A stretch of DNA of 32,000 nt from Chitinophaga pinensis (GTDB lineage: Bacteria; Pseudomonadota; Gammaproteobacteria; Burkholderiales; SG8-41). The stretch covers positions 1 through 32,000 of the forward strand of contig CALQCM020000007.1 of assembly GCA_943329075.2 (NCBI GenBank). Reading direction: 5' to 3'. Positions within the stretch are counted from its first letter, which is position 1; every line of letters starts with the position of its first letter. Below the pieces are notes generated by a model, which was given only the letters and a program-made list of their open reading frames with translations, was not told the DNA's origin and made no database searches. Below are positions 1 through 27,851 of this stretch, piece after piece. Made by a program: the position numbers and the translations under genes.

Positions 1-123
1 CACAAGGGTGATGACGCGCGCCTTCGGATCTCCGAACACGCCGCGCACCGTCGGTTGCGGACGAAATCGATCGAACGCATACGCGTCCCACAGCCGCCGC
101 TTTCGCTTCGTTGAATTGGCCAT
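1..123 (-). CDS. 5' end of an unidentified GC-rich ORF running off the left edge
   Basis: ATG at 123-121 (cat on + strand) opens MANSTKRKRRLWDAYAFDRFRPQPTVRGVFGDPKARVITLV, with no stop before position 1. It is too short in-window to appear in the ORF track. Composition matches the GC-rich host DNA, not the adjacent AT-rich block. No family recognised. Confidence 0.3.
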   Translation of the reverse strand, partial: MANSTKRKRRLWDAYAFDRFRPQPTVRGVFGDPKARVITLV

Positions 124-425
124 CCAAACATGATGCCCAATTCAAAGCCTTTACGAAACCCCTGCAAGCCAGTAGTCATGCGGCTTTCAGGCATTTTTAT
201 CGCTCTTTTTACCCACTCGATTTCCTGAAGAGCCTTTTTATATAAGGCATTAGGCTTACCCTTTCCCCGCAACCTACGATTGCAATTAGAGGGCATCTCG
301 CTTTACAAGCTTTCACCAAATATATACTGACATCAATGGCTGGAAACCACAGAGGCCAATCGAAACATATACCCCTTGTATTAAGAGCGCCGAGCAAGCA
401 CCGTGAAATCAATTGATGCAACCCC

Positions 426-1232
426 CTAGCCGTCTCGTCTCGCCTCCAAAAGTTCTTTTTTTATTCCTTCACTCATTTCACTTTGCAGCCATGCCTCAAA
501 AACAACCATAGCATCTTTTCCTTTTTTTTCTAAAACTCCCTGCAGATCATAAGCGTTAATTCTCGCAATCTCAGAAAAATACTCACCAAGAATTGGAAAC
601 TTACGCTTTGCCTCAATCATATCCTCTATGTTCTCACTAACAATATTACAAAATACTATGGCTTTTATGTATTGAAAGATATGCATTGTCGAAGCAATAG
701 CATCGAATGTAATTTCTAACATATATCCACATTCATACTCATAGAGTATCCGCACTCTTTTTATTTCTTTTCCCAGATTACAGGCAATAGAATAATCGTG
801 CCCGCATAACTCCATAACACTTTTAAATAAATGAACGACCATCTGCACGGGTTCATTTTCGACCTCATAGATTGATTCTAATAAAACAGAATCTGCAGGA
901 TTTAATTCTATAACGTTAGATCCTATGTCTTTAAATTCATCGCAAAAATATACGAGCTCTCTAGCCAATGAATCTGACTTAACATCGCCCCATTGATCCG
1001 CCAGAGCGGCAATTTTCTCAAGAGGATTGCCGTATTTTTTCTCCATAAATTGATCCAGCCTATCGCCAAAGTAACGACTAAAAATAATAAATATGTATAA
1101 AAAAATTCCAATAACAATCAGAGGCAATACAAGCCATACCGAAAGGGGTTCAGGTACAATCATGCCAATTAAGAACGCAAGCGTGACTACTATTTGCAAA
1201 ATGCTCGTTGCGAATTTCTGGAACTCTTCCAT
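426..1232 (-). CDS. hypothetical membrane-anchored protein (two N-terminal TM helices plus ~200-aa soluble domain)
   Basis: 268-aa ORF with an ATG start. Hydrophobic helices are ILQIVVTLAFLIGMIV and VWLVLPLIVIGIFLYIFIIF, followed by a charged helical region. No recognisable catalytic motif. Confidence 0.55.
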   Translation of the reverse strand: MEEFQKFATSILQIVVTLAFLIGMIVPEPLSVWLVLPLIVIGIFLYIFIIFSRYFGDRLDQFMEKKYGNPLEKIAALADQWGDVKSDSLARELVYFCDEFKDIGSNVIELNPADSVLLESIYEVENEPVQMVVHLFKSVMELCGHDYSIACNLGKEIKRVRILYEYECGYMLEITFDAIASTMHIFQYIKAIVFCNIVSENIEDMIEAKRKFPILGEYFSEIARINAYDLQGVLEKKGKDAMVVFEAWLQSEMSEGIKKELLEARRDG

Positions 1233-1307
1233 TAAATCTCGCGTTTTTTCTATTTAGTTACTACCGATCTGGTAATTTTTATTGAATCTAGGCTGACCCC
1301 CTCTGCA

Positions 1308-1952
1308 TCAGCGATCTTCTTCTGGATAAATTATCCTACCCATTAACTCTGGTCCATTGTGTTCGAATGCACTGAGATCGACATCATTAAAATTGATAAC
1401 CGCAACACATTTATTTCCCTTAATAGCATTAAGTAGTTCTTCGTCGGTATCACACAAGTAAACGTGGCTGTTACATGTTTCGCAACTACGAATTTTTGGA
1501 AGGCATGGTATTTCCTTGAGTTCAGCCCACTTGAGAGTGCACTTGTATCCAATTTTGCAGTGCCGAATCACGGATTTCTCCGCCGGGGTCTTTGGCTTGA
1601 AGAAATTATTGACCTGCGCTATAGCTTCGTTAAAGTCGGTGACCTTGATGCCAATGCTCGGTTTACGCATCTTTTCTATGCGCTCATTGCGGATAACATA
1701 GCACCTCTTTCTTTTTAAAGTTCCTAGCGAAACGGTACCCAACACCTCCAACCCCTCCATGATGATAAATTTATGGCCGAGTAGCGGCGTATCTCCATGA
1801 AATTTATAATCACCAAACTCAAGGGCCCACTCCGGATGGTCTAGCGCCAACTTCTCAACGAGAGGTTTCAGAAACGGATGGGCATCGAATACGCGGGCAC
1901 ACTCATCCTCTTTCAAGAAACTGAACTTTATATTTGCGTACGTCATATCCAT
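1308..1952 (-). CDS. hypothetical protein with C-terminal six-cysteine (zinc-ribbon-like) domain
   Basis: 214-aa ORF. GGAGG abuts the first ATG, so the second ATG at 1946 (spacing 6) is the likelier start. The C-terminal segment RHCKIGYKCTLKWAELKEIPCLPKIRSCETCNSHVYLCDTDEELLNAIKGNKCVAVINF aligns with ORF 6154..6426, and all six Cys are conserved. Confidence 0.6.
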   Translation of the reverse strand: MDMTYANIKFSFLKEDECARVFDAHPFLKPLVEKLALDHPEWALEFGDYKFHGDTPLLGHKFIIMEGLEVLGTVSLGTLKRKRCYVIRNERIEKMRKPSIGIKVTDFNEAIAQVNNFFKPKTPAEKSVIRHCKIGYKCTLKWAELKEIPCLPKIRSCETCNSHVYLCDTDEELLNAIKGNKCVAVINFNDVDLSAFEHNGPELMGRIIYPEEDR

Positions 1953-2129
1953 CCTCCGTTAGCAGTCGGATTCATTAAGAACGTCATTCCTAACCTTGCG
2001 CAATTAAAACTTCCGAGTCGTTCTTAATCTATTGGATGCAACCTTTTACAGGCCCTATACCGACCAACTGGCCTAAGCCGCAACAGAGAAGTCCGAATAA
2101 CCTTCTATTAACTCCTTACGGCGCAACGC

Positions 2130-2996
2130 TTACCAGTAATACCACTTTAAATACCATTTAATTTGATCGAATGTCTCACCGCAAGCGCTTCTTCTTTTAT
2201 CTTCTTTAAATTTTGCCGGATGGTAATTAAATAAACCATCAAAAACCGTGAACTGCTCACGTATCCAGTCTTTATCCCAGTCTGGGGATTTCCCGCCACA
2301 CTGCCAATTGTTTTTATCCAAGACAACGCAATCATCTAATTTTTTCAACTCAACATACTTCTCTCTTTTATCTCTTCCGTAATTAAAAGTCCCTTCTGTC
2401 TTTTCAATTACATCATTATTTTTTAGGGTATAGGTAAGAACCTCGGGGCTCATTTTCGACCCTACTTCACATCCAATAAAAATCGTTTTTATCTCTCCGT
2501 CGAAATAACACACAGCCTCGACCGAAACAATTATTCCAAAAACAAAAACAAAAACAAATTTTCTGTATATTTTAAATATATTTATATTATCCGTTACCCT
2601 CGCCTTCCCAACATTTTTCACGCTAAGAATTTGCCTAGATTTCTCCTTCTTATCGTCATATCCAAGATACAAAATAATACATAGCTTTACCGCCAACAGC
2701 GAACCAGCTCCGATCAGCAATCCTTCCTTAGTATTTGTGTTCAACATACCAAATACGTCTGAATCAGATTTAACGAAGAGTGCAAAAGCGGAAAGTATTA
2801 CGGCATTTATAATTGCGACAACCTTAACCCAGCGAAATATATCGTCAGAACGTCCCTTGTAAGCTAGGTAGCCGATATAAATCCAAAACAACTGATAGGG
2901 TGACCCTTTGTTTCCAGCAACCAACACCAATAGAAACATCAGCACCGATACTGCGAGGATTCCCCATCTGCGCCTTACGTTACTCGGATCAGACAT
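2130..2996 (-). CDS. hypothetical multi-pass membrane protein with Cys/Trp-rich C-terminal region
   Basis: 288-aa ORF with an ATG preceded by GGGGGGAG. Hydrophobic segments are WGILAVSVLMFLLVLVAG, VVAIINAVILSAFALFV, LLIGAGSLLAVKLCIILYL and FVFVFVFGIIVSV. The C-terminus is WQCGGKSPDWDKDW...ACGETFDQIKWYLKWYYW. Confidence 0.55.
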   Translation of the reverse strand: MSDPSNVRRRWGILAVSVLMFLLVLVAGNKGSPYQLFWIYIGYLAYKGRSDDIFRWVKVVAIINAVILSAFALFVKSDSDVFGMLNTNTKEGLLIGAGSLLAVKLCIILYLGYDDKKEKSRQILSVKNVGKARVTDNINIFKIYRKFVFVFVFGIIVSVEAVCYFDGEIKTIFIGCEVGSKMSPEVLTYTLKNNDVIEKTEGTFNYGRDKREKYVELKKLDDCVVLDKNNWQCGGKSPDWDKDWIREQFTVFDGLFNYHPAKFKEDKRRSACGETFDQIKWYLKWYYW

Positions 2997-3641
2997 ATCA
3001 CTCCCCCCGCCATTCCTGCTTCAGCCATTTGCTCTGCTTCATACCGCTCTCCAGAAATTTCTTTGGGTGAAAAATCAATCGAGGCAAATTTTGCTACGCT
3101 AGCGGGCGAAGGTGATTGAGGCAGATATATCGTTGCTACGCGCAGGTCTCTTGCATGGATACTACGCCGTAACCCAATCGCGACATTGCAAAAAATATAT
3201 ACCCCCCCGGTCAAGGCATTTGAAAAACCAAGGGGGGGGGCTTTCCTATAGCGGGGTGGGTGGGCGGTCGGCTGGCGATTTTTACACCTTACCTGGTACC
3301 AGTTATGGTGTCAGCGCCATCACACAGATCGTTCGTACAGATCATTGTGCATAGCCGACGCGGGAGGAAGTAAACAAATTCCGGGGGGTGCCGGGTGGGT
3401 GGGGGTCGAAGTAGAACGAAATTGCTCTGCGAGACGGTAAAACGCTAAAAAACCTGGTAGCCGGACAGGTCACACGTTGTGCGGCTAAACATACGCGTCG
3501 ATGCTAAAACCTTCACCGGAACGATAAGCATGGCGCTTACCGTCTGACCGAAATGGTTCGGTCAAGCCCAAGTTTTCCAGCGTCTAATTTTTAGTTCGCT
3601 GGATACGTTGTGCCGTAGGTGCTTGATTACTTGAGGTGGGG

Positions 3642-3687
3642 TGGTGCCGCTGCCCGGATTCGAACTGGGGACCTTCGCATTACGAAT
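3642..3687 (-). repeat. tRNA-Thr 3'-half remnant (distal att direct repeat of the island)
   Basis: tggtgccgctgcccggattcgaactggggaccttcgcattacgaat matches 13094-13139 at 43 of 46 positions in the same orientation. It includes the CCA end, the acceptor 3' strand, the T-arm and the 3' side of the anticodon stem. Confidence 0.85.
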
Positions 3688-3735
3688 TATTGAATAGGCG
3701 GTTTTCGCCGTTGTTTTTATTGATGTTTTTTATGT

Positions 3736-3756
3736 GTAGTATAGTTTGTAGTATAG
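3736..3756 (+). repeat. two direct GTAGTATAG 9-mers (candidate integrase arm-type sites, distal end)
   Basis: gtagtatag occurs at 3736-3744 and 3748-3756. The same 9-mer occurs as an inverted pair at 13045-13068, next to the integrase and tRNA. Confidence 0.6.
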
Positions 3757-3851
3757 TGCCGGCGCTAAAATAATATAATAATATCAGTTACTTAGAGCGT
3801 TTTTCGCGCACCACAATCCACCACAAACCGACTAAACGCGATCACCGTTAC

Positions 3852-3868
3852 TTTGCGTAACGGTCACA
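3852..3868 (+). repeat. 17-nt repeat TTTGCGTAACGGTCACA, copy 1
   Basis: Exact 17-mer shared with 6476-6492. Here it forms the 3' arm of the hairpin ACCGTTAC-TTTGC-GTAACGGT (3845-3865). Function unknown. Confidence 0.6.
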
Positions 3869-3878
3869 CACGCTGAGC

Positions 3879-3901
3879 AAGTGTCTTTCAAAACGACACT
3901 T
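3879..3901 (-). repeat. 23-nt hairpin element, copy 1 (AAGTGTC-TTTCAAAAC-GACACTT)
   Basis: 7-bp stem and 9-nt loop. It lies 41 nt 3' of the stop of ORF 3942..4262/4286. It is identical to the reverse complement of 8848-8870. Confidence 0.8.
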
Positions 3902-3941
3902 CAACGCTCGAAGTCAAATATTTTACTTAGTTCCCAAAAAA

Positions 3942-4262
3942 CTAATCTCGCGAAATTTTCTCAGAAGATTTATTTTTATCAGCAACCTGTGGCGCGGTTT
4001 TATATAGCAACAGAGCAGTAGAAAAATCGAAAATAACCCATACTTCCTTTGGATGAAAAAACGGGGAAAACGGGTTAAATAAAATTGCCACCAATAGGTA
4101 GTATATAGGGGTAGCTTCTCGTCCTTGCTCATACGCTATTAATGCACCGAGCGCAAAAGTACCGCATACCACAACGCGAAGTAAAACATAGTAGGCGTAC
4201 GGCAAAGGTAAGACCGCAATAAGTAGCATTGCTATACAAATATTTTTGATGTATTTTGGCAT
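3942..4262 (-). CDS. small hypothetical membrane protein
   Basis: The ORF-track entry 3942..4286 begins at a TTG. The first ATG is at 4262 (MPKYIKNICIAMLLIAVLPLPYAYYVLLRVVVCGTFALGALIAY...). There are three hydrophobic helices. The start choice is uncertain. Confidence 0.5.
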   Translation of the reverse strand: MPKYIKNICIAMLLIAVLPLPYAYYVLLRVVVCGTFALGALIAYEQGREATPIYYLLVAILFNPFSPFFHPKEVWVIFDFSTALLLYKTAPQVADKNKSSEKISRD

Positions 4263-4364
4263 ACTAAGAGTTATTTTCCGCCACAATACTTCCCACTAAT
4301 TTTATCAAGCAAAGTAGAATATTAATAGTTACCCTACACTATTGTAGGATCAATATGAAAAATC

Positions 4365-4760
4365 CTATATCGCCCAATAACGTCCGCTTGAATAAATTCC
4401 TTCCTCATATTTTCTTGCATCCCAGAATTTCTCTTTTGGCATATAGCACTCAAAACTTGAACGGCTATCAAACCTAAAAAATCGATTATTGCTAAGGGCA
4501 GAGTAAGCTGAGTAGTAAGAACTAAAATCGATAGAATCAACGACGGCCGAATATTCATCATTGATTATAGTGTACGGATTCCGACCTAGTGTTTTCCCGC
4601 AGTCGTGGAAGAAGTAAACCGTAGCCGTGAAATTCTCACAACAATCAATCAAAGCCCAGTTGTGTTGACCTTGCTCAATTATTTTCCAATACCATTTTCG
4701 AGAACCGATCTCAAATAGCGGCGGTATTCTATTTGCCAAACCGCCAAAATTTCTAATCAT
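4365..4760 (-). CDS. hypothetical protein
   Basis: 131-aa ORF with an ATG start, aromatic-rich, no TM segment and no recognised motif. No clear Shine-Dalgarno sequence. Confidence 0.45.
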   Translation of the reverse strand: MIRNFGGLANRIPPLFEIGSRKWYWKIIEQGQHNWALIDCCENFTATVYFFHDCGKTLGRNPYTIINDEYSAVVDSIDFSSYYSAYSALSNNRFFRFDSRSSFECYMPKEKFWDARKYEEGIYSSGRYWAI

Positions 4761-4819
4761 TTTTGAATAACAATAATTGTAAAATCGCGCATGAAATTAA
4801 AATAGATTGGGCAATTCTC

Positions 4820-5197
4820 TTAAGCAATGACAAGAGATATCATCCAAAGTATCAGAAGTGGAATTGAGGGTATACCTACAAAACCGATAGCCCAACCACT
4901 TTTATTGAGCCCTAATGCAATTTCTAACTTGACAAGCACAAGCGTACAAACAGGTATGCTCAGAAACACTAACACAAGCGGATAGTACCAACGAGTTGCA
5001 TATCCAATATACAACAGTAAACCAACATATATTGGCATCGCACTTGTTAGACGCATTGTTAGACGCAGAACTGGATTTAACGTTGCTTTCCCCCTAGATA
5101 CGGTAACAAGAAAGCTCGATTGATGCCCAACAAACCAAAAAAACGTCGAGTATGCAAGGACAAGTAACACAAAATTAGTTGAAAATATCTCGTTCAT
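4820..5197 (-). CDS. small hypothetical four-helix membrane protein
   Basis: 125-aa ORF that is almost entirely hydrophobic helices (FVLLVLAYSTFFWFV, MPIYVGLLLYIGY, YYPLVLVFLSIPVCTLVLV, WAIGFVGIPSIPLLILWMISLVI). Confidence 0.5.
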   Translation of the reverse strand: MNEIFSTNFVLLVLAYSTFFWFVGHQSSFLVTVSRGKATLNPVLRLTMRLTSAMPIYVGLLLYIGYATRWYYPLVLVFLSIPVCTLVLVKLEIALGLNKSGWAIGFVGIPSIPLLILWMISLVIA

Positions 5198-5286
5198 TTT
5201 TCACTTAATTTGTCTTTGTATTGTTCAACGTTTGGGTATCTTCGTGTTCAAAACTGAATCCTGAGGCTACACTCATCACGCACAGC

Positions 5287-5309
5287 AAGTGGCTTTAAAA
5301 ACGACACTT
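5287..5309 (-). repeat. 23-nt hairpin element, copy 2 (variant AAGTGGC-TTTAAAAAC-GACACTT)
   Basis: Matches copy 1 at 21 of 23 positions, and the left flank also matches (CAGCAAGTG). It lies 3' of ORF 5421..6017 and 5' of ORF 4820..5197. Confidence 0.7.
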
Positions 5310-5420
5310 CAGCTTAATACAGCGAACTGTTCACGCTTGTCACCACTCCTCTCAGCAGCCACTAGCCAACGTGATGCTATATCATGCTAAATCTATGTGT
5401 TTCCCTTGCCATCATTAAGG

Positions 5421-6017
5421 CTAACAGTCGCTATCAGTTTTGGGCAACCCTAATATTGCCCACTCCGCGTCCGTAAGGCGTTTTATTATGTGACAATTGT
5501 GCTTAGGGGGCAAAGAAAAGTTTCTACATCCCCACATGTATGAACCACCCTTAGTGTTTTTTAACTCAAAAGGGATATTGCATTTGGAACAATGAGGGGC
5601 TACCTTCTGAAGTGCTTTTTCTTTGTCTTTTAGCTCTTTTTCCACTTCAATCGTTGCTTGTGTGGGTAAGCTAGCTCTTTTCAACTCACAGGTTCTGATT
5701 GCCCGTAACGCCTCTGCACGAATAGTCGCATCGGTTGCTGCCGGCAGAAGCTCTTTAATTGTCGCAACGAATTCGTCACAATCATTTTGTGAAATAACAT
5801 AGTCGATATCCGTTAAGGCCTCAATAACAGCTTTATTTCCATCAACCACCAAAACACTAATGTTGGCATCGAATAATACTAAAAAGCCGCCAGAGCGATC
5901 ACGCTGTATTTTGTTACGCTTCCGTTTTTTACCAAGCTCCCTCGCAAACTCTCTTGCCTTTGAATACGATTCAAACCTCTGCTCCGTTTCCATTGGCAAA
6001 TCAGAAGGGGATGTCAT
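5421..6017 (-). CDS. hypothetical protein with C-terminal topoisomerase-type C4 zinc ribbon
   Basis: 198-aa ORF with GAGG 7 nt upstream of the ATG. The C-terminal HCSKCNIPFELKNTKGGSYMWGCRNFSLPPKHNC fits the CxxC...GC...C pattern of Topo I-type C4 zinc fingers. The N-terminal part is unassigned. Confidence 0.6.
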   Translation of the reverse strand: MTSPSDLPMETEQRFESYSKAREFARELGKKRKRNKIQRDRSGGFLVLFDANISVLVVDGNKAVIEALTDIDYVISQNDCDEFVATIKELLPAATDATIRAEALRAIRTCELKRASLPTQATIEVEKELKDKEKALQKVAPHCSKCNIPFELKNTKGGSYMWGCRNFSLPPKHNCHIIKRLTDAEWAILGLPKTDSDC

Positions 6018-6038
6018 CTTCGGCCTCGCGCGGCACCC

Positions 6039-6146
6039 CTAATGTATGACACCTTTGTTCTTTTCCCAGTAAACATTTTCGCCCCTTATTACGACTTTTC
6101 CGCATCTACCACAATGACTTTTGCATTTTGATGCTATGAGTCTCAT
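6039..6146 (-). CDS. possible 35-aa zinc-ribbon micro-ORF (not in ORF track)
   Basis: ATG at 6146 and TAG at 6041-6039. It reads MRLIASKCKSHCGRCGKVVIRGENVYWEKNKGVIH, with a CxxHCxxC cluster. It starts 7 nt after the stop of ORF 6154..6426. No Shine-Dalgarno sequence, so support is weak. Confidence 0.2.
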   Translation of the reverse strand: MRLIASKCKSHCGRCGKVVIRGENVYWEKNKGVIH

Positions 6147-6153
6147 TTATTGC

Positions 6154-6426
6154 TCAATAAGGTATATCGTCATCTTCTAGATCTGTTTTTCTACGGACCA
6201 CACCCATTAGTCGAGTAATATTTTTTGTCGTTGCAGTCTCAAAGTCTACAGCAACACACCTATTCAAAACTATTGACTCGCGCAACTGATCATCTGCCTT
6301 ACAGAAGAAAACCTCTCGTTGACAAGCATCGCAAAAACGAACATCAGTGTTTTTTGTTTGCGTCAGTGCCTCCCATTTCTTTTCACACTTAAACGCGAAG
6401 ACACAGTTACGAATAAACGTAGTCAT
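6154..6426 (-). CDS. small six-cysteine (zinc-ribbon-like) domain protein, paralogous to the C-terminus of ORF 1308..1952
   Basis: 90-aa ORF. RNCVFAFKCEKKWEALTQTKNTDVRFCDACQREVFFCKADDQLRESIVLNRCVAVDF aligns with ORF 1308..1952. The pattern is C-x5-C-x18/19-C-x2-C-x5-C-x14-CVAV. Confidence 0.6.
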   Translation of the reverse strand: MTTFIRNCVFAFKCEKKWEALTQTKNTDVRFCDACQREVFFCKADDQLRESIVLNRCVAVDFETATTKNITRLMGVVRRKTDLEDDDIPY

Positions 6427-6475
6427 ATGTGTTTTTAACCTTTATCTAACTCTATATGCCGCCTACGGCATAACT

Positions 6476-6492
6476 TTTGCGTAACGGTCACA
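6476..6492 (+). repeat. 17-nt repeat TTTGCGTAACGGTCACA, copy 2
   Basis: Exact match to 3852-3868. It lies in the gap between ORF 6494..6688 (stop 2 nt away) and ORF 6154..6426. Confidence 0.6.
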
Positions 6493-6493
6493 A

Positions 6494-6688
6494 TTAAATC
6501 CCCGCTATTGCTTTCTGCACCGTTGCCAGCGTCTGCTGTGCTTTACGCTGTTGCTGTCGGGCACGTTCAGCTTGGACAGCTTGATCTGCACGTTTGGCGC
6601 TTGCTTTCATTGTGGCAATACGTTGCTGGTCGGGTGTCAGCGGTTTGTTGGGCTTGATGGTCTTCGGTTGGATTTCATGTAGGCGCAT
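6494..6688 (-). CDS. small basic Gln/Ala/Arg-rich hypothetical protein
   Basis: 64-aa ORF with a predicted helical, highly basic C-terminal half (AKRADQAVQAERARQQQRKAQQ). No obvious Shine-Dalgarno sequence. Confidence 0.4.
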   Translation of the reverse strand: MRLHEIQPKTIKPNKPLTPDQQRIATMKASAKRADQAVQAERARQQQRKAQQTLATVQKAIAGI

Positions 6689-6703
6689 TGGGTATTTAGT
6701 GAA

Positions 6704-6748
6704 CCTTGCAGTACCAGTTTACAAATAAATTTGCGTGATACTGCAAGG
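6704..6748. promoter_or_regulatory. perfect 10-bp inverted repeat CCTTGCAGTA-N25-TACTGCAAGG
   Basis: The arms are at 6704-6713 and 6739-6748. It lies between the stop of ORF 6770..7204 and the start of ORF 6494..6688, near the boundary between the mid-GC backbone and the AT-rich cargo (~6430-6700). No U-run follows on the minus strand. The spacer contains TTTGCGTGA, which resembles the 17-nt repeat. Confidence 0.4.
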
Positions 6749-6769
6749 GCCAGACACTAAACGCCGTTG

Positions 6770-7204
6770 CTAACGCTTGAAGCCCCGACGCACACCCGCG
6801 CTGACCGCCTCAATCTGAGTGTCAATTTCGCCACTTTCCACTGCTTTACGCAAAACAGCAAGCGTTGCGGTCAATTCTGCCGCAGTCGTTTCCACCGCAG
6901 TGCGTCCTTTTGCCAATTCCACCACCTTGTTGCCGTATTTCACAGCAACACACACCTTACCCCCGTCCACAGCCCAAAACCACGCTTTTAGACGTTTGGG
7001 CTGCTGAACCACGCTGACATTGCCCGCCGCATCTTTAACCCGCTTGCTACGCATAGCCGTGTAAACAGTGCCAGCCGCTTTTGCCGCCGCCAGTGCGATC
7101 TGCTCATCCAGCTTTGCCAACAGCTTTTGACGACGCTGTATGACAGGGTTGTTTTCGCGTTGTGGTTTTGCGGCTACCAATTTCAGTGTGTTCAGTGTGC
7201 TCAT
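6770..7204 (-). CDS. conserved-looking hypothetical protein
   Basis: The ORF track starts at 7219, but GGGAGA lies 7 nt upstream of the ATG at 7204 (MSTLNTLKLVAAKPQ...). From memory, it resembles a hypothetical-protein family common in proteobacterial islands. That cannot be verified here. Confidence 0.6.
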   Translation of the reverse strand: MSTLNTLKLVAAKPQRENNPVIQRRQKLLAKLDEQIALAAAKAAGTVYTAMRSKRVKDAAGNVSVVQQPKRLKAWFWAVDGGKVCVAVKYGNKVVELAKGRTAVETTAAELTATLAVLRKAVESGEIDTQIEAVSAGVRRGFKR

Positions 7205-7310
7205 TTGTCGTTCTCCCAATAGTTAACCTACTGAACACACGATAACGCCTGATTTTGGTGATCGCGACCGAAGATTATTTCTGCATTTTGTTTGGTTTGC
7301 ATAAATAACT

Positions 7311-7437
7311 GTGAGTTGCTTGGTGAGTTGCATTAGTTGCTTATTGGTAAATAAGTTTCTTGTCACAAGTTACTAGTAACAAGTTACGTATTTGCAGACA
7401 AATGAGTAACTACGACTAGTGACAAGCAACAAGTGAC
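7311..7437. promoter_or_regulatory. cluster of iteron-like short repeats in a divergent intergenic region
   Basis: GTGAGTTGC occurs at 7311 and 7323, with ATTAGTTGC at 7332 and an inverted GCAACT at 7472. ACAAGTTAC occurs at 7365 and 7379, ACAAGCAAC at 7422 and ACAAGTGAC at 7429. A perfect 12-bp palindrome GTTACTAGTAAC is at 7369-7380. Confidence 0.55.
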
Positions 7438-7509
7438 TGGCGACTTCTTTTTTTGGCGTCAGCAACAGAATGCAACTAACAAGAAACTCTTTAACCAAAG
7501 GAGATAGCA

Positions 7510-7968
7510 ATGGAAAATGAAATAGCAGTTAGGTTTTACGAAAATGAACGGTATGGAACAACGTATGGAAAAGCACTTTATCGCCGTGCCTTGTATAACG
7601 CCACAGCAGATGTAAGCAATCCAAAAGCAAAATATTTGCTGGACTTGCACAAATACAATGAATGGGAACACACCGCAAAAACAGATGATGATATGGCACT
7701 ACTAGAAAATGCAGAAGCTTACATTGGCACGGCGTCTAAAGATGATTGGGTTGGCACTTGGGTTAAGCGACTTGACGCTGATGGTAGCAAACCACTAGTA
7801 ATGGGATTCGGCTTGTTGGACATGCACAAGCTGGAGCTTATATTAGTTATTAACGATGAGGAGTATGGGGTGCAAAACGCATGGCAGTTAGCTGTAAAAC
7901 CATGCAAGCAAGCCAGGCCCAATAAAAAAAGCCCGCAGTTACTTGCTACCAATACTGATCTGAGCTAA
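7510..7968 (+). CDS. hypothetical protein
   Basis: 152-aa ORF with a strong Shine-Dalgarno sequence (AAGGAG at 7498-7503). No motif recognised. Confidence 0.6.
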   Translation: MENEIAVRFYENERYGTTYGKALYRRALYNATADVSNPKAKYLLDLHKYNEWEHTAKTDDDMALLENAEAYIGTASKDDWVGTWVKRLDADGSKPLVMGFGLLDMHKLELILVINDEEYGVQNAWQLAVKPCKQARPNKKSPQLLATNTDLS

Positions 7969-8282
7969 TTGCATCCGACAGACACTGCGACAACACGCGA
8001 CAAACGTGTTGTCGTAGGGTAGGCAAGCGTGGGTAGCTGAATACTGCAAGACTGCGCGATAACGCACGATCGCACGTCTGAGGTGTTTTACGCGATGCCC
8101 TGTACAGCGCCCACTATGTACAGCACGAATAAAAAACAAATCTTATTCGCAGAGTATTTGGTCTGGCGCGAATTGCTTGAAATCATTGAGGTCTTTTGCA
8201 GAGCCAGTTTCGGTCGTTTTTCTGAATCAAAGACAGCACAATAAATACACGACTATTGTTTGATTAACGGGAGAAACGACAA

Positions 8283-8849
8283 ATGGCGCAAGCACGTACA
8301 CTGAAGGAAAAGGAACTTAAACAACTACTGCAATTTATTGCTTTTCGCAAACACGCATTACGGAACCGCTGTACCTGCCTGATGACGCATTGGGCGGGCA
8401 TGCGTGTAGGCGAAGTGGCTGCGCTGCGGTACTCAGATGTGCTGGCAGCAGACGGCAGCATACTTGCAGAAATACGTTTATCGGCTCAGCAAACAAAGGG
8501 CGACAAGGCCCGTGTTGTGTATGTGGCAGAAAAGCTACGCAAGGAACTGCTGAACTACGTCCGTACCTACCCTCAGACTGACCCAACACGGCCCCTGTTT
8601 TACACACAGAAGCGTGACCATTTCACAGCAAACACTTTGGCACAGCACTTTTTTTGGTTATACAAGGCGGCAGGGCTGAACGGGGCTTCGTCACATTCTG
8701 GCCGACGGACTTTCATTACTACTTTGGCAAACAAGGGAGTTGGAATCCGTGTGTTGCAGCAATTATCTGGTCACGCTGATATTCAAACAACTGCCAGATA
8801 TATAGAGACAACGGACGCGATGAAGCGGGCGGCGGTGGAACTGGTGTAA
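8283..8849 (+). CDS. small tyrosine recombinase, catalytic domain only (188 aa)
   Basis: GGGAGA lies 8 nt upstream of the ATG. Catalytic signature: R in GMRVGEVAALR, HxxR in SHSGRRTF, H in LSGHADI, and the Tyr nucleophile in TTARYIE. There is no N-terminal core-binding or arm-binding domain. The size is comparable to FimB/FimE-class invertases. Confidence 0.8.
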   Translation: MAQARTLKEKELKQLLQFIAFRKHALRNRCTCLMTHWAGMRVGEVAALRYSDVLAADGSILAEIRLSAQQTKGDKARVVYVAEKLRKELLNYVRTYPQTDPTRPLFYTQKRDHFTANTLAQHFFWLYKAAGLNGASSHSGRRTFITTLANKGVGIRVLQQLSGHADIQTTARYIETTDAMKRAAVELV

Positions 8850-8870
8850 GTGTCGTTTTGAAAGACACTT
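8848..8870 (+). repeat. 23-nt hairpin element, copy 3 (exact, inverted relative to copies 1 and 2)
   Basis: aagtgtcgttttgaaagacactt is the exact reverse complement of 3879-3901. It begins inside the TAA stop (8847-8849) of the small recombinase gene. Confidence 0.8.
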
Positions 8871-8925
8871 ATGCACGGACTGCTGTGGAATCAGGCTAAA
8901 ACTTCGGTGTGGGAGTTTTGCTGCT

Positions 8926-8972
8926 GCAATCTTGTTGAGATTGCTGCAACCGTCCAGCAACGAGACGGTTGC
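8926..8972. terminator. two adjacent hairpins in the convergent gap between recombinase and AAA+ genes
   Basis: GCAATC-N7-GATTGC is at 8926-8944 and GCAACCGTC-N9-GACGGTTGC is at 8946-8972. Neither has a clear U-tail, so the terminator role is tentative. Confidence 0.3.
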
Positions 8973-8983
8973 ACTTCGAAACA

Positions 8984-9691
8984 TTATTTCTTTTTGCTGG
9001 GAACCACAGACAAGTGTGTTTGTGCAGACTTTGTAACAGTAGGCACAGGGGGCAGCGCCATTTCGTTACGAACCAAGTAGAGAATTTCATCCAGCTTGTT
9101 CATGTAATCGCGCAAGTCGCCTGTTGACTCCACCAGTTGCAACCAGTGCAGAACCTGCTGATCCGACAAATGAACGTCTTCGCCATGCAGAATTAATTGC
9201 GCTCTATTTAGAACTTGACGTGCGCCCAAAGCAGGGAAATTGATCAGGTCACAGCGCGAACGCAGACTTTTGTGAATGTTCATCGCATCGTTGGTCGTGA
9301 CAATCAACATGACTCTGTCCTGCACGGCATCAAGCGCTTTCCAAAAATTGGCGAAATCCCCTTTTAGGGTATCTAGTTCCTCCGCCACGATAAACAATTT
9401 CTCTCCTTCCTCAAGAAATATAACGGAGGTCGCGTTCTGTAAATAATTACGTAGATTTTTCATGCGTACGAGTTCTTCCATGTCTTTGTGTTCAATTCGT
9501 GCGTGTGCGCCGCCGATAGCCACTGGCAGTAAACGCGCCGCTGTACTTTTTCCAGTACCGTTCGGCCCCCAAAGCAAGATGTTTCCTTCAAGTGCCTTGT
9601 TTGCATAGGCGTCAATTCGGGTTTGCACAGCCAGGCTGGGGTAGATCACATCGCCAAGTGACTGGGGTGCGTATTTGATAGCGGTTTTCAT
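8984..9691 (-). CDS. clamp-loader (RFC/DnaX/HolB)-like AAA+ ATPase
   Basis: 235-aa ORF with AAGGAA upstream of the ATG. KYAPQSLGDVI resembles RFC box II. Walker A is GPNGTGKST, Walker B-like is FIVAEELD, and sensor 1 is IVTTND. The SRC motif in LRSRCDLINF is the hallmark arginine finger of clamp-loader subunits. Confidence 0.7.
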   Translation of the reverse strand: MKTAIKYAPQSLGDVIYPSLAVQTRIDAYANKALEGNILLWGPNGTGKSTAARLLPVAIGGAHARIEHKDMEELVRMKNLRNYLQNATSVIFLEEGEKLFIVAEELDTLKGDFANFWKALDAVQDRVMLIVTTNDAMNIHKSLRSRCDLINFPALGARQVLNRAQLILHGEDVHLSDQQVLHWLQLVESTGDLRDYMNKLDEILYLVRNEMALPPVPTVTKSAQTHLSVVPSKKK

Positions 9692-9763
9692 GTTGTGTGT
9701 TCCTTTGTGTAGTGGTTTTTTTTGTGTATGTCGAAAAGGGGAGTTGCCTCCCCCTTTCGGTCA

Positions 9764-10549
9764 TTAAGCTACTTTTGCGAAAACATCCGCATTGGCCGCC
9801 ATCCCCAACAAATCACTGGCCTCTTTGTTGAGCGCCTGATCTGCATCTTTTTGACCAGCGCGAACTTTTGCCATGCGTATCAGCAGTGCCTGAACGAGAG
9901 CTTCGTTGATGTCGGACAAAACACCCACAATAGAAACCATGCCGTCTGGTGCAGGTTTAGCCAGCAAAACAGCGTAATCCCCAGTGACGCCCGCCAGCGA
10001 CAGCGTTGCCAATGGAGTAATTGTCGCTAGTTCCACGTTCGCTTTGACTTCGCCAGTAGCCGAAACAATCGCAGCACGTTTCGCCTGTGCCGCTTCTGAC
10101 ACCACCATATCGCGTTTGATTTCTTCGATGCCGCCTTGTTCTGCGATGTAAGCGGGCAGATCGTTAGCGGTGATAGCTTTAGAAATCGCCGCTTTGAGCA
10201 CGTAGGCATAGCCATGCGCACGTTTGCGATCTGAGCTGAATACGAAACGCACGAACATCGTGAGTGTCGTCGTGTTGCTCTGCACTTTGACTCCATCCGC
10301 TGTAAGCCGCGCACAAAGCTCATTGCGCAGCGTCTTACGGCTGTTGCCATCAGCGTTTACGAACTTGGTTTGGAATACGTCCAAGCAGCCCGCAAGCAAC
10401 GCGTACAGCCCATCATTAGCTTTCTTGTAGTCAGTTATTTCCCACTGCTGACGACGCGCAGACAGAGCGTCCAGAGACTGGACGATGCCATTTGCAATAA
10501 TCATGTTGTCGTTCGACGGGGTAAAGGCGGTTTTGACAGATTTGCTCAT
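9764..10549 (-). CDS. hypothetical protein (261 aa), upstream partner of the AAA+ gene
   Basis: The ORF track starts at 10660, but GGAGA lies 7 nt upstream of the ATG at 10549 (MSKSVKTAFTPSND...). It is Ala-rich and predicted helical. No motif recognised. Confidence 0.6.
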   Translation of the reverse strand: MSKSVKTAFTPSNDNMIIANGIVQSLDALSARRQQWEITDYKKANDGLYALLAGCLDVFQTKFVNADGNSRKTLRNELCARLTADGVKVQSNTTTLTMFVRFVFSSDRKRAHGYAYVLKAAISKAITANDLPAYIAEQGGIEEIKRDMVVSEAAQAKRAAIVSATGEVKANVELATITPLATLSLAGVTGDYAVLLAKPAPDGMVSIVGVLSDINEALVQALLIRMAKVRAGQKDADQALNKEASDLLGMAANADVFAKVA

Positions 10550-10688
10550 TTTGATTCTCCGATTTAAAAGTCGGCGCGATGCTGGTGGCGGAATTGCCAG
10601 AAGTTGTATCGCGCTGACAATTAGGATTAGATCACCAAGAACTAATAAATCAGTCAACAACCAATAATCAGTTATTATCTGTAGACAT

Positions 10689-11624
10689 ATGGAAGAACAA
10701 TTGCTTCCGTGGTACCTCCGTAGCGCGGATTTCTACAAACCGAACTGGCACACACGGCCTACGATTGGCTTTGAGTTGCTGTTTGAGTTTTTGCGGCTCA
10801 GCCCTAGCTACGAACTGGCCCGCAAAGCCAGCATGGAAGGGCTAAGCACTGCTGACCAGCTACTATTGCCGCCAGATTTTGAGCAGGTAAAAAACACCTA
10901 TCAGCTCTTGGGCGATGTGCAAAAAATCTTGTTTCGGCAATGGTGGATCGCAAGAGGACTCAGCACCTTTGGCAATCCCTACGCACGCCCAAAATTGCAC
11001 TCAGTCGCACATCTGGCAGGTGGGAAAGATATTTCGGCTGAAACCCTCGTAGGTAACTTCGAAAGTTACCTAGCTGGAGCGCGTCATGAGGAAGGGCTAG
11101 TCGATAGCGTGCTCATCGCAGTCCCTTTGGGCCTACGTCAATCAGAAATCCGCAAACAGATGTCCGCTATTCTTACTGCCTATTCAGGCCATGAGCAAAA
11201 CTCACGGCAAAGTCCATTGATAAAATTGCAAGGCAAGCGGCTGCGATCAAAGGTGCTGTTCAATGGCCTACGACTGCTTTGGTTTAAAGCTGCAAAACCC
11301 CAATGGGAACACTGGCGGCTGGGTGCTAAATCAAGATTCAGCGTCACCTATTCCAAAGAACTCAATCCTGCCAATCCCCGTAGAGTGGTCAGCACGCTGG
11401 AATCGTACGATAGAGAGATGATGACAAAAATCACCAATCGCGCGCTGAAGAAATTCGAATCCATTGCGGAGAACGCAGCAAGAGGGCGATTCCCTTCGCA
11501 AGACCCAGTCCATCCAGTAGATTTTCAGTATCCGTTTCTTGCCAAACGAATACAGCGCAAAAACACATGGGAACAAGAGGAGAAAGCACGGTTACTGGCG
11601 GCATTCCGCAGCCGTCGGCATTAG
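10689..11624 (+). CDS. hypothetical protein (311 aa)
   Basis: Long ORF divergent from 9764..10549 and convergent with the integrase. Trp/Arg-rich, no recognised motif, weak Shine-Dalgarno sequence. Confidence 0.55.
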   Translation: MEEQLLPWYLRSADFYKPNWHTRPTIGFELLFEFLRLSPSYELARKASMEGLSTADQLLLPPDFEQVKNTYQLLGDVQKILFRQWWIARGLSTFGNPYARPKLHSVAHLAGGKDISAETLVGNFESYLAGARHEEGLVDSVLIAVPLGLRQSEIRKQMSAILTAYSGHEQNSRQSPLIKLQGKRLRSKVLFNGLRLLWFKAAKPQWEHWRLGAKSRFSVTYSKELNPANPRRVVSTLESYDREMMTKITNRALKKFESIAENAARGRFPSQDPVHPVDFQYPFLAKRIQRKNTWEQEEKARLLAAFRSRRH

Positions 11625-11771
11625 TGCAAGACCGTCCCGTTGCTGGACGCTTGCTGAACGTAACAGCACAGCACGACCCAGCCCACTCACGTATTCGACC
11701 CGATTCCACCGTCGGTTCGGCGGTGATTTTCACCAAGTACAGCGACAGAGGCTGTCGTCCAACTCCGAAAC

Positions 11772-13040
11772 TCAGGCTTTCTTCCGCTTCTTAGAGGGTT
11801 TCAATGACTGCAGTTGTGCCACGTTCATTTCGTTCTGGTAATGACTGCCGTAGAAACGGGTGATCATTTCTGCGCTAGTTCTGGCATTTTGCGCCAACGT
11901 ATTCCAGTCGATGTTGTCGCCCTTAGTAATCCGAAACATGATTGCTGTGTGACGCAAGCTGTACAACGTCCGTACCGTGCCTTTTGCATCCAGTCGCAAA
12001 TCAGTCACGTCCAGCAAGTGGTAAAACAGCCGCACCAGCTGTACGTAAGCGTAGTCTCTGTTGCGATGCTCTGGCATAAACACGTAATCGTCGTCTTTAG
12101 CCAATTCCCGTTCAGCTTGATATTGCTGTTGCCGTTCATACACTTTAACGGCGACGGGCATACTGATGATGGGCTTGTTGTGCTTTTTCGTGGTGGGCGG
12201 TGACAAACGCAAATACGTGTTGTCCTTTCGCACCACTGCCACATGCGAATGCTTCAGCGTCTTAATATCCGACGGCCGCACGTAGGTGTTGACCATAAAC
12301 AAGATCAAGTTATGCAATTCTTGCGTAAACCGCATCCGCCGCTTTGCCTTACCTTGCTGATTACGGACTACGATCTCAGTGCCGATCAATGCCTTTGCGT
12401 TGCTTTGAAGCTTGGTATATTCCCAGCTATTAAAATAACCACGCGGGTCATCTTCCAAAGTGATGGTGGGAAATGCGGGCAGATGCGGGATGATTTGCTT
12501 GCGGTGGGCGTGCTTTAACACCTTACGTAGCAGTGATTCGTGTAGCTTCAGTGTTGCGACCTTCAGTCCTTTTTCCGTCAGTGTATTTAAGTAAGTCTCT
12601 ATAACCGTGTAGTCAATCTGACCCACATCGTATGCGCGGAAATACGGCAGCATGTGTACACGCAGACGGCTTTGTTCGTTGACGTTGAGACTGGCGCTGA
12701 GTTCACCGCGCTTAATACGCGATTCTTGTAACTTCAGCATCTCTTTCGCGCACACTTCAAAGCGCGATGTCTTGCCAATCATCAAACCACCCGTTTTACG
12801 CACCAGTAGTTCTTCGTAAAACGCGATCGCTGCCTTAAACGCTTCTTGCGTCTGGTCAGTCTTAGTAGTGCGCTTAAATATTCTGCCGCTGTCGTAGTAG
12901 CGTGCCCAATAGAAAGGCGACGCGGGAATGCGGAAGATGGTTAACTTGGAGGGGTATTTGGGGACGGATTGAATCGTAGCGGGAATCGGCACAGTTTTGT
13001 GCCGCCCGATTACCAAAGCTTTTTTGGGCTTCGTTTCCAC
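11772..13040 (-). CDS. tyrosine-type site-specific integrase (422 aa)
   Basis: GTG start at 13040, 54 nt from the tRNA 3' end. Catalytic elements: R in YVRPSDIK, LRHTAI (the second Arg), and the Tyr in ITRFYGSH. The long N-terminal region is consistent with arm and core-binding domains. Confidence 0.85.
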   Translation of the reverse strand: METKPKKALVIGRHKTVPIPATIQSVPKYPSKLTIFRIPASPFYWARYYDSGRIFKRTTKTDQTQEAFKAAIAFYEELLVRKTGGLMIGKTSRFEVCAKEMLKLQESRIKRGELSASLNVNEQSRLRVHMLPYFRAYDVGQIDYTVIETYLNTLTEKGLKVATLKLHESLLRKVLKHAHRKQIIPHLPAFPTITLEDDPRGYFNSWEYTKLQSNAKALIGTEIVVRNQQGKAKRRMRFTQELHNLILFMVNTYVRPSDIKTLKHSHVAVVRKDNTYLRLSPPTTKKHNKPIISMPVAVKVYERQQQYQAERELAKDDDYVFMPEHRNRDYAYVQLVRLFYHLLDVTDLRLDAKGTVRTLYSLRHTAIMFRITKGDNIDWNTLAQNARTSAEMITRFYGSHYQNEMNVAQLQSLKPSKKRKKA

Positions 13041-13044
13041 GTTA

Positions 13045-13068
13045 GTAGTATAGCGCCAACTATACTAC
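13045..13068. repeat. inverted pair of GTAGTATAG 9-mers (candidate integrase binding sites, tRNA-proximal end)
   Basis: GTAGTATAG (13045-13053), then cgccaa, then CTATACTAC (13060-13068). It lies between the integrase start and the tRNA. The same 9-mer is found twice at 3736-3756. Confidence 0.6.
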
Positions 13069-13093
13069 TGTCAAAACGTAACTACTTGATTTT

Positions 13094-13169
13094 TGGTGCC
13101 GCTGGCCGGAATCGAACTGGCGACCTTCGCATTACGAATGCGCTGCTCTACCAACTGAGCTACAGCGGC
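13094..13169 (-). tRNA. tRNA-Thr (anticodon CGT)
   Basis: The reverse complement is GCCGCTGTAGCTCAGTTGGTAGAGCAGCGCATTCGTAATGCGAAGGTCGCCAGTTCGATTCCGGCCAGCGGCACCA. It has a 7-bp acceptor stem, a GCTC/GAGC D-stem, anticodon loop TTCGTAA, T-loop TTCGATT and an encoded CCA. Positions 10-48 (D-arm, anticodon arm and variable loop) are identical to my recollection of E. coli thrW. One A52-C62 mismatch in the T-stem is present in both att copies. Confidence 0.9.
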
Positions 13170-27818: not shown

Positions 27819-27851
27819 AAAAATCCCCGTCCGTGTGGCGGGGATTTTTTT
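27819..27851. terminator. bidirectional rho-independent terminator between pilY1 and ispH
   Basis: Perfect 11-bp stem AAAAATCCCCG / CGGGGATTTTT with a 9-nt loop. There is an A-run 5' and a T-run 3'. It lies 15 nt after the pilY1 stop and 60 nt after the ispH stop. Confidence 0.85.

Follow-up and report, generated by a model that had tools for sequence, protein, structure and literature searches.

The repetitive extragenic palindromic (REP) elements, the bacterial interspersed mosaic elements (BIMEs) and hairpin terminators are short palindromes that are reused at the 3' ends of genes in transcript polarity, and they can stabilise the mRNA upstream of them. Mosaic phages and the cargo hot spots of phage satellites have exchangeable modules bordered by conserved gene ends or by short non-coding sequences that are likewise conserved. 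The invertases FimB and FimE, of about 190-200 amino acids (aa), consist essentially of the catalytic domain alone and act on short inverted repeats near their own genes. A single enzyme of integrons, IntI, serves attC sites of many different sequences, which it recognises by structure (PMC4792948), whilst the relaxases MobK (catalytic tyrosine at residue 179), TcpM and MpsA have no DNA-binding domains and use an origin of transfer (oriT) located upstream of the relaxase gene (PMC8152469; PMC9299015). The MOB_M relaxases are reported to be the commonest relaxase family in chromosomes, where 96% are found beside an integrase (2026 preprint, 10.64898/2026.01.13.699239). The present work concerns a 23-nt hairpin, and the other palindromes associated with it, in a genomic island carried by a 32,000-nt stretch of DNA (the window; positions 1 to 32,000 of contig CALQCM020000007.1, GenBank assembly GCA_943329075.2, named Chitinophaga pinensis and placed in the Burkholderiales by GTDB). 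One copy of the hairpin is fused to the stop codon of a gene encoding a 188-aa tyrosine recombinase, here termed rec188.

The island has a low G+C content, is about 9.4 kb long (about 3688-13093) and is integrated at a tRNA-Thr gene. Its family carries a set of hairpins, comprising the 23-mer, two inverted-repeat hairpins (IR-A and IR-B) and an AT-rich palindrome, that are located where the conserved backbone meets variable cargo. An island has two or three cargo slots, and the hairpins mostly close a transcription unit on its 3' side, in many cases overlapping the stop codon. Our preferred reading, to which we give a probability of roughly 45%, is that these hairpins punctuate module boundaries, as transcript-end stem-loops that double as preferred crossover points. 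They would fold into stem-loops at the ends of transcripts, insulating or stabilising the upstream message, and termination itself would fall to IR-A, whose stem is long and whose tail is rich in U. The same hairpins would be preferred crossover points for the gain, loss and swapping of cargo, because few other non-coding sequences are common to islands that otherwise differ and because palindromes are prone to breakage and template switching. On this reading rec188, a core gene of the island, would have another primary job, for example multimer resolution or nicking for mobilisation.

The 23-mer, AAGTGTCTTTCAAAACGACACTT, has a 7-bp stem and a 9-nt loop. A preliminary description of the window had listed three copies, and all three were recovered, at 3879-3901 (plus strand, exact), 5287-5309 (plus strand, two mismatches) and 8848-8870 (minus strand, exact). 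No match to the 23-mer was obtained in 100 dinucleotide shuffles of the window with up to three mismatches allowed; the three copies are real and none is expected by chance. Copy 3 is an exact inverted repeat of copy 1, and the asymmetric centre is the same in both. The copies were also found, as described, to share one polarity relative to the upstream gene, to lack a T-run on their downstream side and, in copies 1 and 3, to have their stems lengthened by the flanks (copy 3, -16.8 kcal/mol, z = -3.5). The reported fusion of copy 3 to the recombinase gene is exact, the first base of the hairpin being the second base of the TAA (8847-8849) that closes the 188-aa open reading frame (ORF) at 8283-8849. 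The statement that every copy lies just 3' of a gene needs amendment for copy 2, which is 111 nt from the 198-aa gene (5421-6017). The intervening sequence, 5312-5425, is the decayed 3' end of an H-NS-family gene, the original owner of copy 2. Copies 1 and 2 share not just the 23-mer but a longer repeat of 35 nt (3869-3903 and 5277-5311).

The stop codons of three unrelated genes fall inside the first bases of the hairpin. In addition to the TAA of the recombinase gene, these are the TGA of the H-NS gene, which overlaps the hairpin in the same manner in intact copies on two contigs with related islands (L019 and L063; such contigs are numbered L001 onwards), and the TAG-TAA of the gene for p64, a small basic protein of the backbone, which overlaps the 23-mer in L012.

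Other hairpin families with the same behaviour had been missed in the preliminary description, together with the attachment (att) repeat of the tRNA-Thr gene and the large integrase. IR-A, whose extended stem is about 16 bp and is followed by a U-rich stretch on the minus (sense) strand, is kept beside the 23-mer in many related islands. Its half copy at 6476-6492 is a hybrid site in which the left arm has been replaced by a cargo end. IR-A and IR-B swap for one another beside the same ACGGTCAGCACTAAACC. The AT-rich palindrome, AAAAGTTAAAAGTTTTAACTTTT, is present three times in L004, once behind the recombinase gene, once where the cargo faces the integrase and once distally, and next to p64 in L047 this palindrome, IR-A, a variant of the 23-mer and IR-B follow one another in a row. 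Overall, hairpins were located 3' of the genes for rec188, p64, the H-NS-family protein, a DUF6804 protein, an AAA ATPase and two proteins of 311 aa (p311) and 152 aa (p152).

Comparison of the window with related islands gave nucleotide-level boundaries at these sites. Of the three hypotheses in the preliminary description, that of hairpin-type cassette boundaries is the best supported, as a description: relatives diverge exactly at hairpin edges, empty joins exist and matched hairpins flank cargo. Homology with L001-L004 stops exactly at the recombinase stop codon (8849) and restarts at 11659; for L007 and L008 the stop is at 8878, where the extended hairpin ends, and the restart at 11669; and in all six the place of the module-1 cargo (Table 1) is taken by other genes. 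For L010 and L017, the homologous segment 3642-3901 finishes with the final base of copy 1, and homology picks up again at 6484. In lake contigs, position 3900-3903 continues into six or more different sequences, among them 'empty' variants in which the hairpin is joined straight to the p64 stop codon. The unit formed by IR-A, a spacer and the 23-mer (about 60 bp) reached a contig depth of up to 128x, compared with 8x in its flanks. Cargo between matched hairpins was found in three versions, bounded by IR-B and its inverted partner in the window, by three copies of the AT-rich palindrome in L004 and by three copies of the 23-mer in L007. Some replacements end inside genes and not at sites. Block A (Table 1) was not seen in another context among 24 contigs. 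No other context was seen for the H-NS block either, which is flanked by repeated units. The cargo includes defence-type genes, such as the NaeI and BstXI restriction-modification systems found among the variable genes of relatives, in which it resembles phage-satellite hot spots; the linkers differ from those of mosaic phages in being palindromic, in that several palindromes do one job and in abutting stop codons. In L009 (1070-2272), an IS3-family transposase gene (rve domain) lies directly beside a unit of palindrome, IR-A and 23-mer, so the slot edge also receives insertion sequences.

The 23-mer is specific to this island family. A scan of 241 million metagenome records with AAGTGNCTTTNAAAACGACACTT as the query placed it in 12 loci, 11 of which carry island-family backbone genes or the IR-A/palindrome unit, and the twelfth (L011) carries an island-type integrase. 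The scan of viral contigs with the 23-mer, and a distant search of plasmid and phage collections with the hairpin units, gave no match. A host REP element was ruled out, since the host DNA of the window (19 kb) has no copy of the 23-mer and every one of the 12 database loci is an island context. The island repeats differ from REP/BIME sequences in this confinement to one island family, in their low copy number and in the lack of a U-run, and no RAYT (REP-associated tyrosine transposase)-like gene is present in this lineage.

Although a copy of the hairpin overlaps the stop codon of the recombinase gene, it is not specifically linked to that recombinase, and the two do not co-vary. The earlier hypothesis that the hairpins are sites at which the 188-aa enzyme recombines or inverts DNA is not supported in its original form: in L054 an identical protein adjoins the unrelated AT-rich palindrome. 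The same palindrome follows the 93% identical rec188 of L001-L004, and an identical recombinase in L047 is accompanied by a hairpin with two loop changes. In the more distant relatives L005, L035 (Burkholderia sp. WP9) and L039 (64-77% identity), a repeated hairpin is lacking altogether. Dependence of the hairpin type on the gene in the third variable slot (p152, an HUH Rep-like gene or a 53-aa ORF) was ruled out by L008, L019 and L054. These mismatches together indicate that the hairpin accompanies the adjacent cargo or the edge of the slot and does not follow the enzyme. Only recognition by structure, as in integrons, would keep rec188 in the picture.

The last of the earlier hypotheses, that the 23-mer is an RNA element, is a viable candidate. 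Most independent copies have a single polarity relative to the upstream gene, and copy-specific flanks build longer stems around copies 1 and 3 and around the L004 palindrome. IR-A, with its long stem and U-rich tail, looks more like an actual terminator than the 23-mer does. Several observations weigh against a role of the hairpins at transcript ends. The 23-mer is not followed by a U-run, and a terminator scan picked up none of the hairpins. Related islands are transcribed, and their metatranscriptome contigs, which are unstranded and sparse and may include DNA, cross both the 23-mer and IR-A; neither can therefore terminate transcription more than partially. The loop TTTNAAAAC is conserved even where the recombinases are only 52% identical (L013/L014), which counts against a purely structural role because a structural RNA hairpin needs no such conservation. 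Variant copies break stem pairs without compensation, and extension of the stem by the flanks, compared with shuffled flanks in 21 contexts, showed a weak trend only. A related hairpin in L021 has one copy at a 5' end and not at a 3' end; this copy and the stop-codon overlaps of three genes hint at active cutting and joining. A 2111-aa ORF of the host DNA in the window is followed directly by a bidirectional intrinsic terminator of canonical form (27819-27849; 13-bp stem between A-runs and T-runs), so classical terminators are in use in the host, in contrast to the island hairpins.

The identification of rec188 as a tyrosine recombinase reduced to its catalytic domain was upheld. Pfam family PF00589 (Phage_integrase, 2e-27) covers residues 6-178 of 188; the catalytic residues R41, K72, H138, R141, H164 and Y173 are all present and are invariant in 39 relatives; and the protein begins at the position equivalent to residue ~95-110 of XerA, XerC and XerD, leaving no N-terminal DNA-binding domain. 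Its AlphaFold model (pLDDT 87) had XerA (5hxy) as the best PDB match, with a template modelling (TM) score of 0.76 over the catalytic domain, and superposes on the catalytic domains of XerA, IntI, Cre and XerH with nothing N-terminal to them. More than 3,000 relatives were detectable, nearly all of exactly 188 aa and from Burkholderiales where named. The best family matches are Xer-type catalytic domains, and rec188 scores below all curated cut-offs by wide margins, those for XerA, XerC, XerD, integron integrases and FimB/FimE-type invertases included. The assignment to a FimB/FimE size class therefore holds for the size and not for the family, for which the scores were 40.1 (NF007370) and 34.2 bits (NF007371) against cut-offs of 221 and 222. 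Against the integron integrase profiles TIGR02249 and NF011946, 52 bits (cut-off 265) and 32 bits (cut-off 435) were obtained. Alignment to TcpM with hhalign gave a probability of 46% (E = 2e-4) from generic motifs only. With a catalytic domain, no arm-binding or core-binding domain and a position beside an integrase in an integrative element, rec188 fits the description of MOB_M and could equally be a tyrosine-recombinase-like relaxase of that type, which is offered as a lead and not as a finding.

The main rival, an integron-like platform in which rec188 would recognise the folded hairpins by structure and use them as cassette junctions to take up and excise gene blocks at both ends of the backbone, is unlikely, although the resemblance extends to many details. 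As with attC, the island hairpins are imperfect palindromes at cassette 3' ends with a fixed polarity, frequent stop-codon overlap and an adjoining tyrosine recombinase, the gene of which here abuts a site. Matched hairpins flank cargo, block A lies inside 35-nt direct repeats, boundaries are sharp to the nucleotide, empty, hybrid and half sites are present, the stops of three genes overlap the hairpin as in many integron cassettes, and polarity is single inside an array. Recognition of structure would, moreover, let one protein serve different palindromes, as in the precedent of IntI and attC (PMC4792948). However, rec188 has neither the N-terminal domain nor the IntI-specific insertion, for which 188 aa leave no room, and its 52 bits are far from the cut-off of 265. 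Many members of its family have no such repeated hairpins, block A was seen in one context only (24 contigs) and some replacements end within genes. The island sites are 21-29 nt long, compared with 57-141 nt and extrahelical bases for attC; the 23-mer lacks the RYYYAAC / GTTRRRY cores, there is no attI, and the island cargo blocks are multi-gene with their own promoters. Neither circular cassette junctions nor the inverted junctions expected from copies 1 and 3 were found in the assembled contigs of four deep lake metagenomes, a class of sequence from which rare variants drop out. The more specific proposal that rec188 recognises short folded hairpins by shape and captures, excises and inverts gene blocks on both flanks of the backbone of a mobilisable island, as a minimal integron-like system of IntI-independent origin, is decidedly doubtful. 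The missing inverted junctions bear equally on a FimB/FimE-style switch, in which copy 3 together with copy 1 or 2 would flip a block of 3.5-5 kb. The exact inverted repeats with identical asymmetric centres and the size of the recombinase recommend such a switch, and so do two relatives. In L013/L014, with a 52% identical recombinase and an island at tRNA-Lys, the block from DUF6641 to the recombinase gene has its orientation with respect to the integrase reversed, and the 23-mer lies at the junction, so an ancient hairpin-associated inversion is possible in that lineage. In the cultured strain Polynucleobacter yangtzensis MWH-JaK3 (L021), a related 23-bp hairpin, AAGTGTTAC-TGCAA-GTAACACTT, forms an inverted pair around a 2.9-kb block beside the recombinase gene. 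A present-day switch in the window is nevertheless highly improbable: 16 or more contigs with an identical recombinase have one arrangement throughout, inversion has no obvious regulatory output, the copies in L004 and L007 are in direct orientation, and the invertase-family scores are far under the cut-off. Unlike in the FimB/FimE systems, the segment between copies 1 and 3 is 5 kb long and includes the recombinase gene itself, and the best relatives of rec188 are Xer-type.

There are two further accounts. The hairpins might be selfish mini-palindromes, REP-like or MITE (miniature inverted-repeat transposable element)-like repeats that spread in the gene pool of the islands, harmless at gene ends and with no role in the island. 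Several unrelated palindrome families do behave alike in position, copies decay (copy 2 and the variants of L007 and L012), the loop has been flipped relative to conserved flanks at least twice, as expected of unstable palindromes, which do so spontaneously, and an HUH nuclease-like protein is encoded in the backbone of some lineages. We consider this account distinctly unlikely, because there are only one to four copies per island, the HUH gene is absent from the window lineage, the hairpin type is independent of that gene (L054 has the AT-rich palindrome and no HUH gene) and the 23-mer is strongly conserved across lineages with only 52% protein identity. Alternatively, the hairpins may be transfer or replication signals, serving for nicking or as single-strand signals once the island has excised and is being mobilised or replicated, and rec188 a MOB_M-type relaxase like MobK, TcpM or MpsA. 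The arm-binding and core-binding domains are missing from known recombinase-like relaxases too (PMC8152469; PMC9299015), and such relaxases reportedly are the commonest in chromosomes and stand beside an integrase in 96% of cases (10.64898/2026.01.13.699239). Like the present island, MOB_M systems belong to small mobilisable elements, usually beside a true integrase, and have a cis site with inverted repeats (PMC8152469; PMC9299015; 10.64898/2026.01.13.699239). The island has a separate large integrase and a long conserved non-coding region upstream of the rec188 gene, and related islands occur in wrapped-around as well as integrated form. Against this, the known systems have a single oriT, which precedes the relaxase gene and does not coincide with its stop codon, whereas the hairpins occur in several copies, in both orientations and at gene 3' ends; the similarity to TcpM is generic (hhalign probability 46%), and the best matches of rec188 are Xer-type recombinases. 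A transfer role for the hairpins is thus very unlikely.

The small islands of this family are abundant in lake bacteria and hold accessory genes in defined slots, and knowledge of what sets the slot edges would explain how cargo is exchanged between islands. Should the hairpins be no more than passive linkers or ends of transcripts, they would be a tidy example of palindromes organising mosaicism in a mobile element. If rec188 did act on them, they would represent a second and much simpler solution to the integron problem of gene capture at structured DNA. The recombinase itself belongs to a large unstudied family of catalytic-domain-only tyrosine recombinases that is always found beside a true integrase; should its members be relaxases instead, this would bear on how the islands move.

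The backbone shared by the family consists of the large integrase, a DUF6641 protein gene followed by p64, and the 188-aa recombinase gene, with variable genes between them (Table 1).

Table 1. Features of the island and its integration site in the window
Feature	Coordinates	Strand	Remarks
Distal att repeat	3642..3687	not assigned	repeats 46 nt from the 3' part of tRNA-Thr at 93% identity; distal island end
IR-A hairpin	3835..3874	-	core ACCGTTAC-TTTGC-GTAACGGT at 3844-3864; flanks lengthen the stem
23-mer hairpin copy 1	3879..3901	-	forms ~60-bp unit with spacer 3869-3878 (10 nt) and IR-A
Cargo block A	3902..5276	-	between 35-nt direct repeats 3869-3903 and 5277-5311
Block A genes	3942-4286; 4365-4760; 4820-5197	-	DUF6804 protein; 131-aa ORF; 125-aa membrane ORF
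23-mer hairpin copy 2	5287..5309	-	2 mismatches, weakened stem, fold z = +0.2
H-NS-family gene remnant	5312..5425	-	last 38 codons, in-frame stops
Cargo block B	5421..6426	-	zinc-ribbon-like ORFs of 198 and 90 aa in place of most of the H-NS gene
IR-A half copy	6476..6492	-	exact 17 nt, loop and right arm (TTTGCGTAACGGTCACA); abuts p64 stop
Backbone operon	6494..7219	-	DUF6641 protein 6770-7204/7219 and p64 (64 aa) 6494-6688
Third variable slot	7510..8020	+	152-aa ORF 7510-7968 with its own 3' hairpin 7982-8020
Non-coding region upstream of recombinase gene	7995..8282	+	~290 bp, 87-93% identical in close relatives
rec188	8283..8849	+	tyrosine recombinase, catalytic domain only, 188 aa; Pfam PF00589
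23-mer hairpin copy 3	8841..8878 (core 8848-8870)	+	stem extended into the last codons and downstream ATGCACGG
IR-B hairpin	8945..8973	-	TGCAACCGTC-CAGCAACGA-GACGGTTGCA; 3' end of AAA ATPase gene; left edge of module-1 cargo
Module-1 cargo	8984..11624	mixed	clamp-loader-like AAA ATPase 8984-9691 (-), 298-aa ORF 9764-10660 (-), 311-aa ORF 10689-11624 (+)
IR-B inverted partner	11626..11654	+	3' end of 311-aa ORF; right edge of module-1 cargo
Large island integrase	11772..13040	-	422 aa; adjoins the tRNA
tRNA-Thr(CGU)	13094..13169	-	integration site, proximal att

The DUF6641-p64 operon is conserved together with the recombinase across the family, DUF6641 being the constant partner of the small recombinase. 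The model of the DUF6641 protein (pLDDT 88) has a long helix, a six-stranded sheet and two helices. Comparison of this model (6770-7204) with solved structures gave no significant match, and a literature search for DUF6641 returned no papers. A function as a separate core-binding domain, by analogy with MpsB, was rejected on the basis of the confident helix-sheet-helix model, which is no SAM-like helical bundle, and the lack of a PDB match.

The third variable slot contains an HUH Rep-like gene or a 53-aa ORF in relatives, and not the 152-aa ORF. The HUH Rep-like genes (PF23343; motifs LHYHL and YxTKE) are at 8042-8590 in L004, 3872-4447 in L005 and 9009-9527 in L037, in the slot that corresponds to 7315-7994 of the window. 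Within the non-coding region upstream of the recombinase gene, motifs such as CAGTTTCGGTCG and a TTCTGCGCTAA-like sequence are kept in relatives with 48-57% protein identity, and the region is a candidate cis site, which may be an oriT-like sequence, a recombination site or a regulatory leader. Both of the TGTACA palindromes reported upstream of the gene exist; only the second is conserved, the first not being conserved in close relatives.

G+C content is 36-50% over bases 1-13100 and about 62% in the rest of the window. The segment 3688-13093 was identified as an integrated island because the tRNA-Thr gene has its 3' 46 nt repeated at 3642-3687 and abuts the gene of the 422-aa integrase. The tRNA was the sole match in an Rfam scan, and the region gave no match by megablast against plasmids and phages. 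The sequence derives from lake-water metagenomes, and members of the family (about 9-12 kb) occupy tRNA genes or further chromosomal sites of freshwater Burkholderiales. One related island is represented by contigs (L037, L040 and L041) that wrap around with a period of 12.1 kb and are thus circular or tandem, and the same island is integrated in L039 between 300-nt direct repeats beside ribosomal protein genes. Since wrapped-around and integrated forms are both present, the family appears to excise and to have been caught in both states. L047 combines an identical recombinase and module-1 cargo with another large integrase (424 aa) and another chromosomal site, beside secA and with no tRNA, the break with the window being near 11757; the integrase/att module is therefore itself exchangeable. 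A further metagenome contig, L059, joins position 8475 of the window to 12657. The small recombinase gene and the large integrase gene are each interrupted midway at this junction, which has a 3-nt overlap and a loss of 4.2 kb; the contig represents a genuine deletion variant or else a chimera produced by assembly.

Window positions 1-3641, leftward of the distal att repeat, form a second low-GC segment with ORFs of 268, 214 and 288 aa. None of these ORFs had a family match, and none of the five hairpin types is present in the segment. One of the ORFs holds a domain 36% identical to the 90-aa protein of the island, and the segment is probably a neighbouring second island in tandem.

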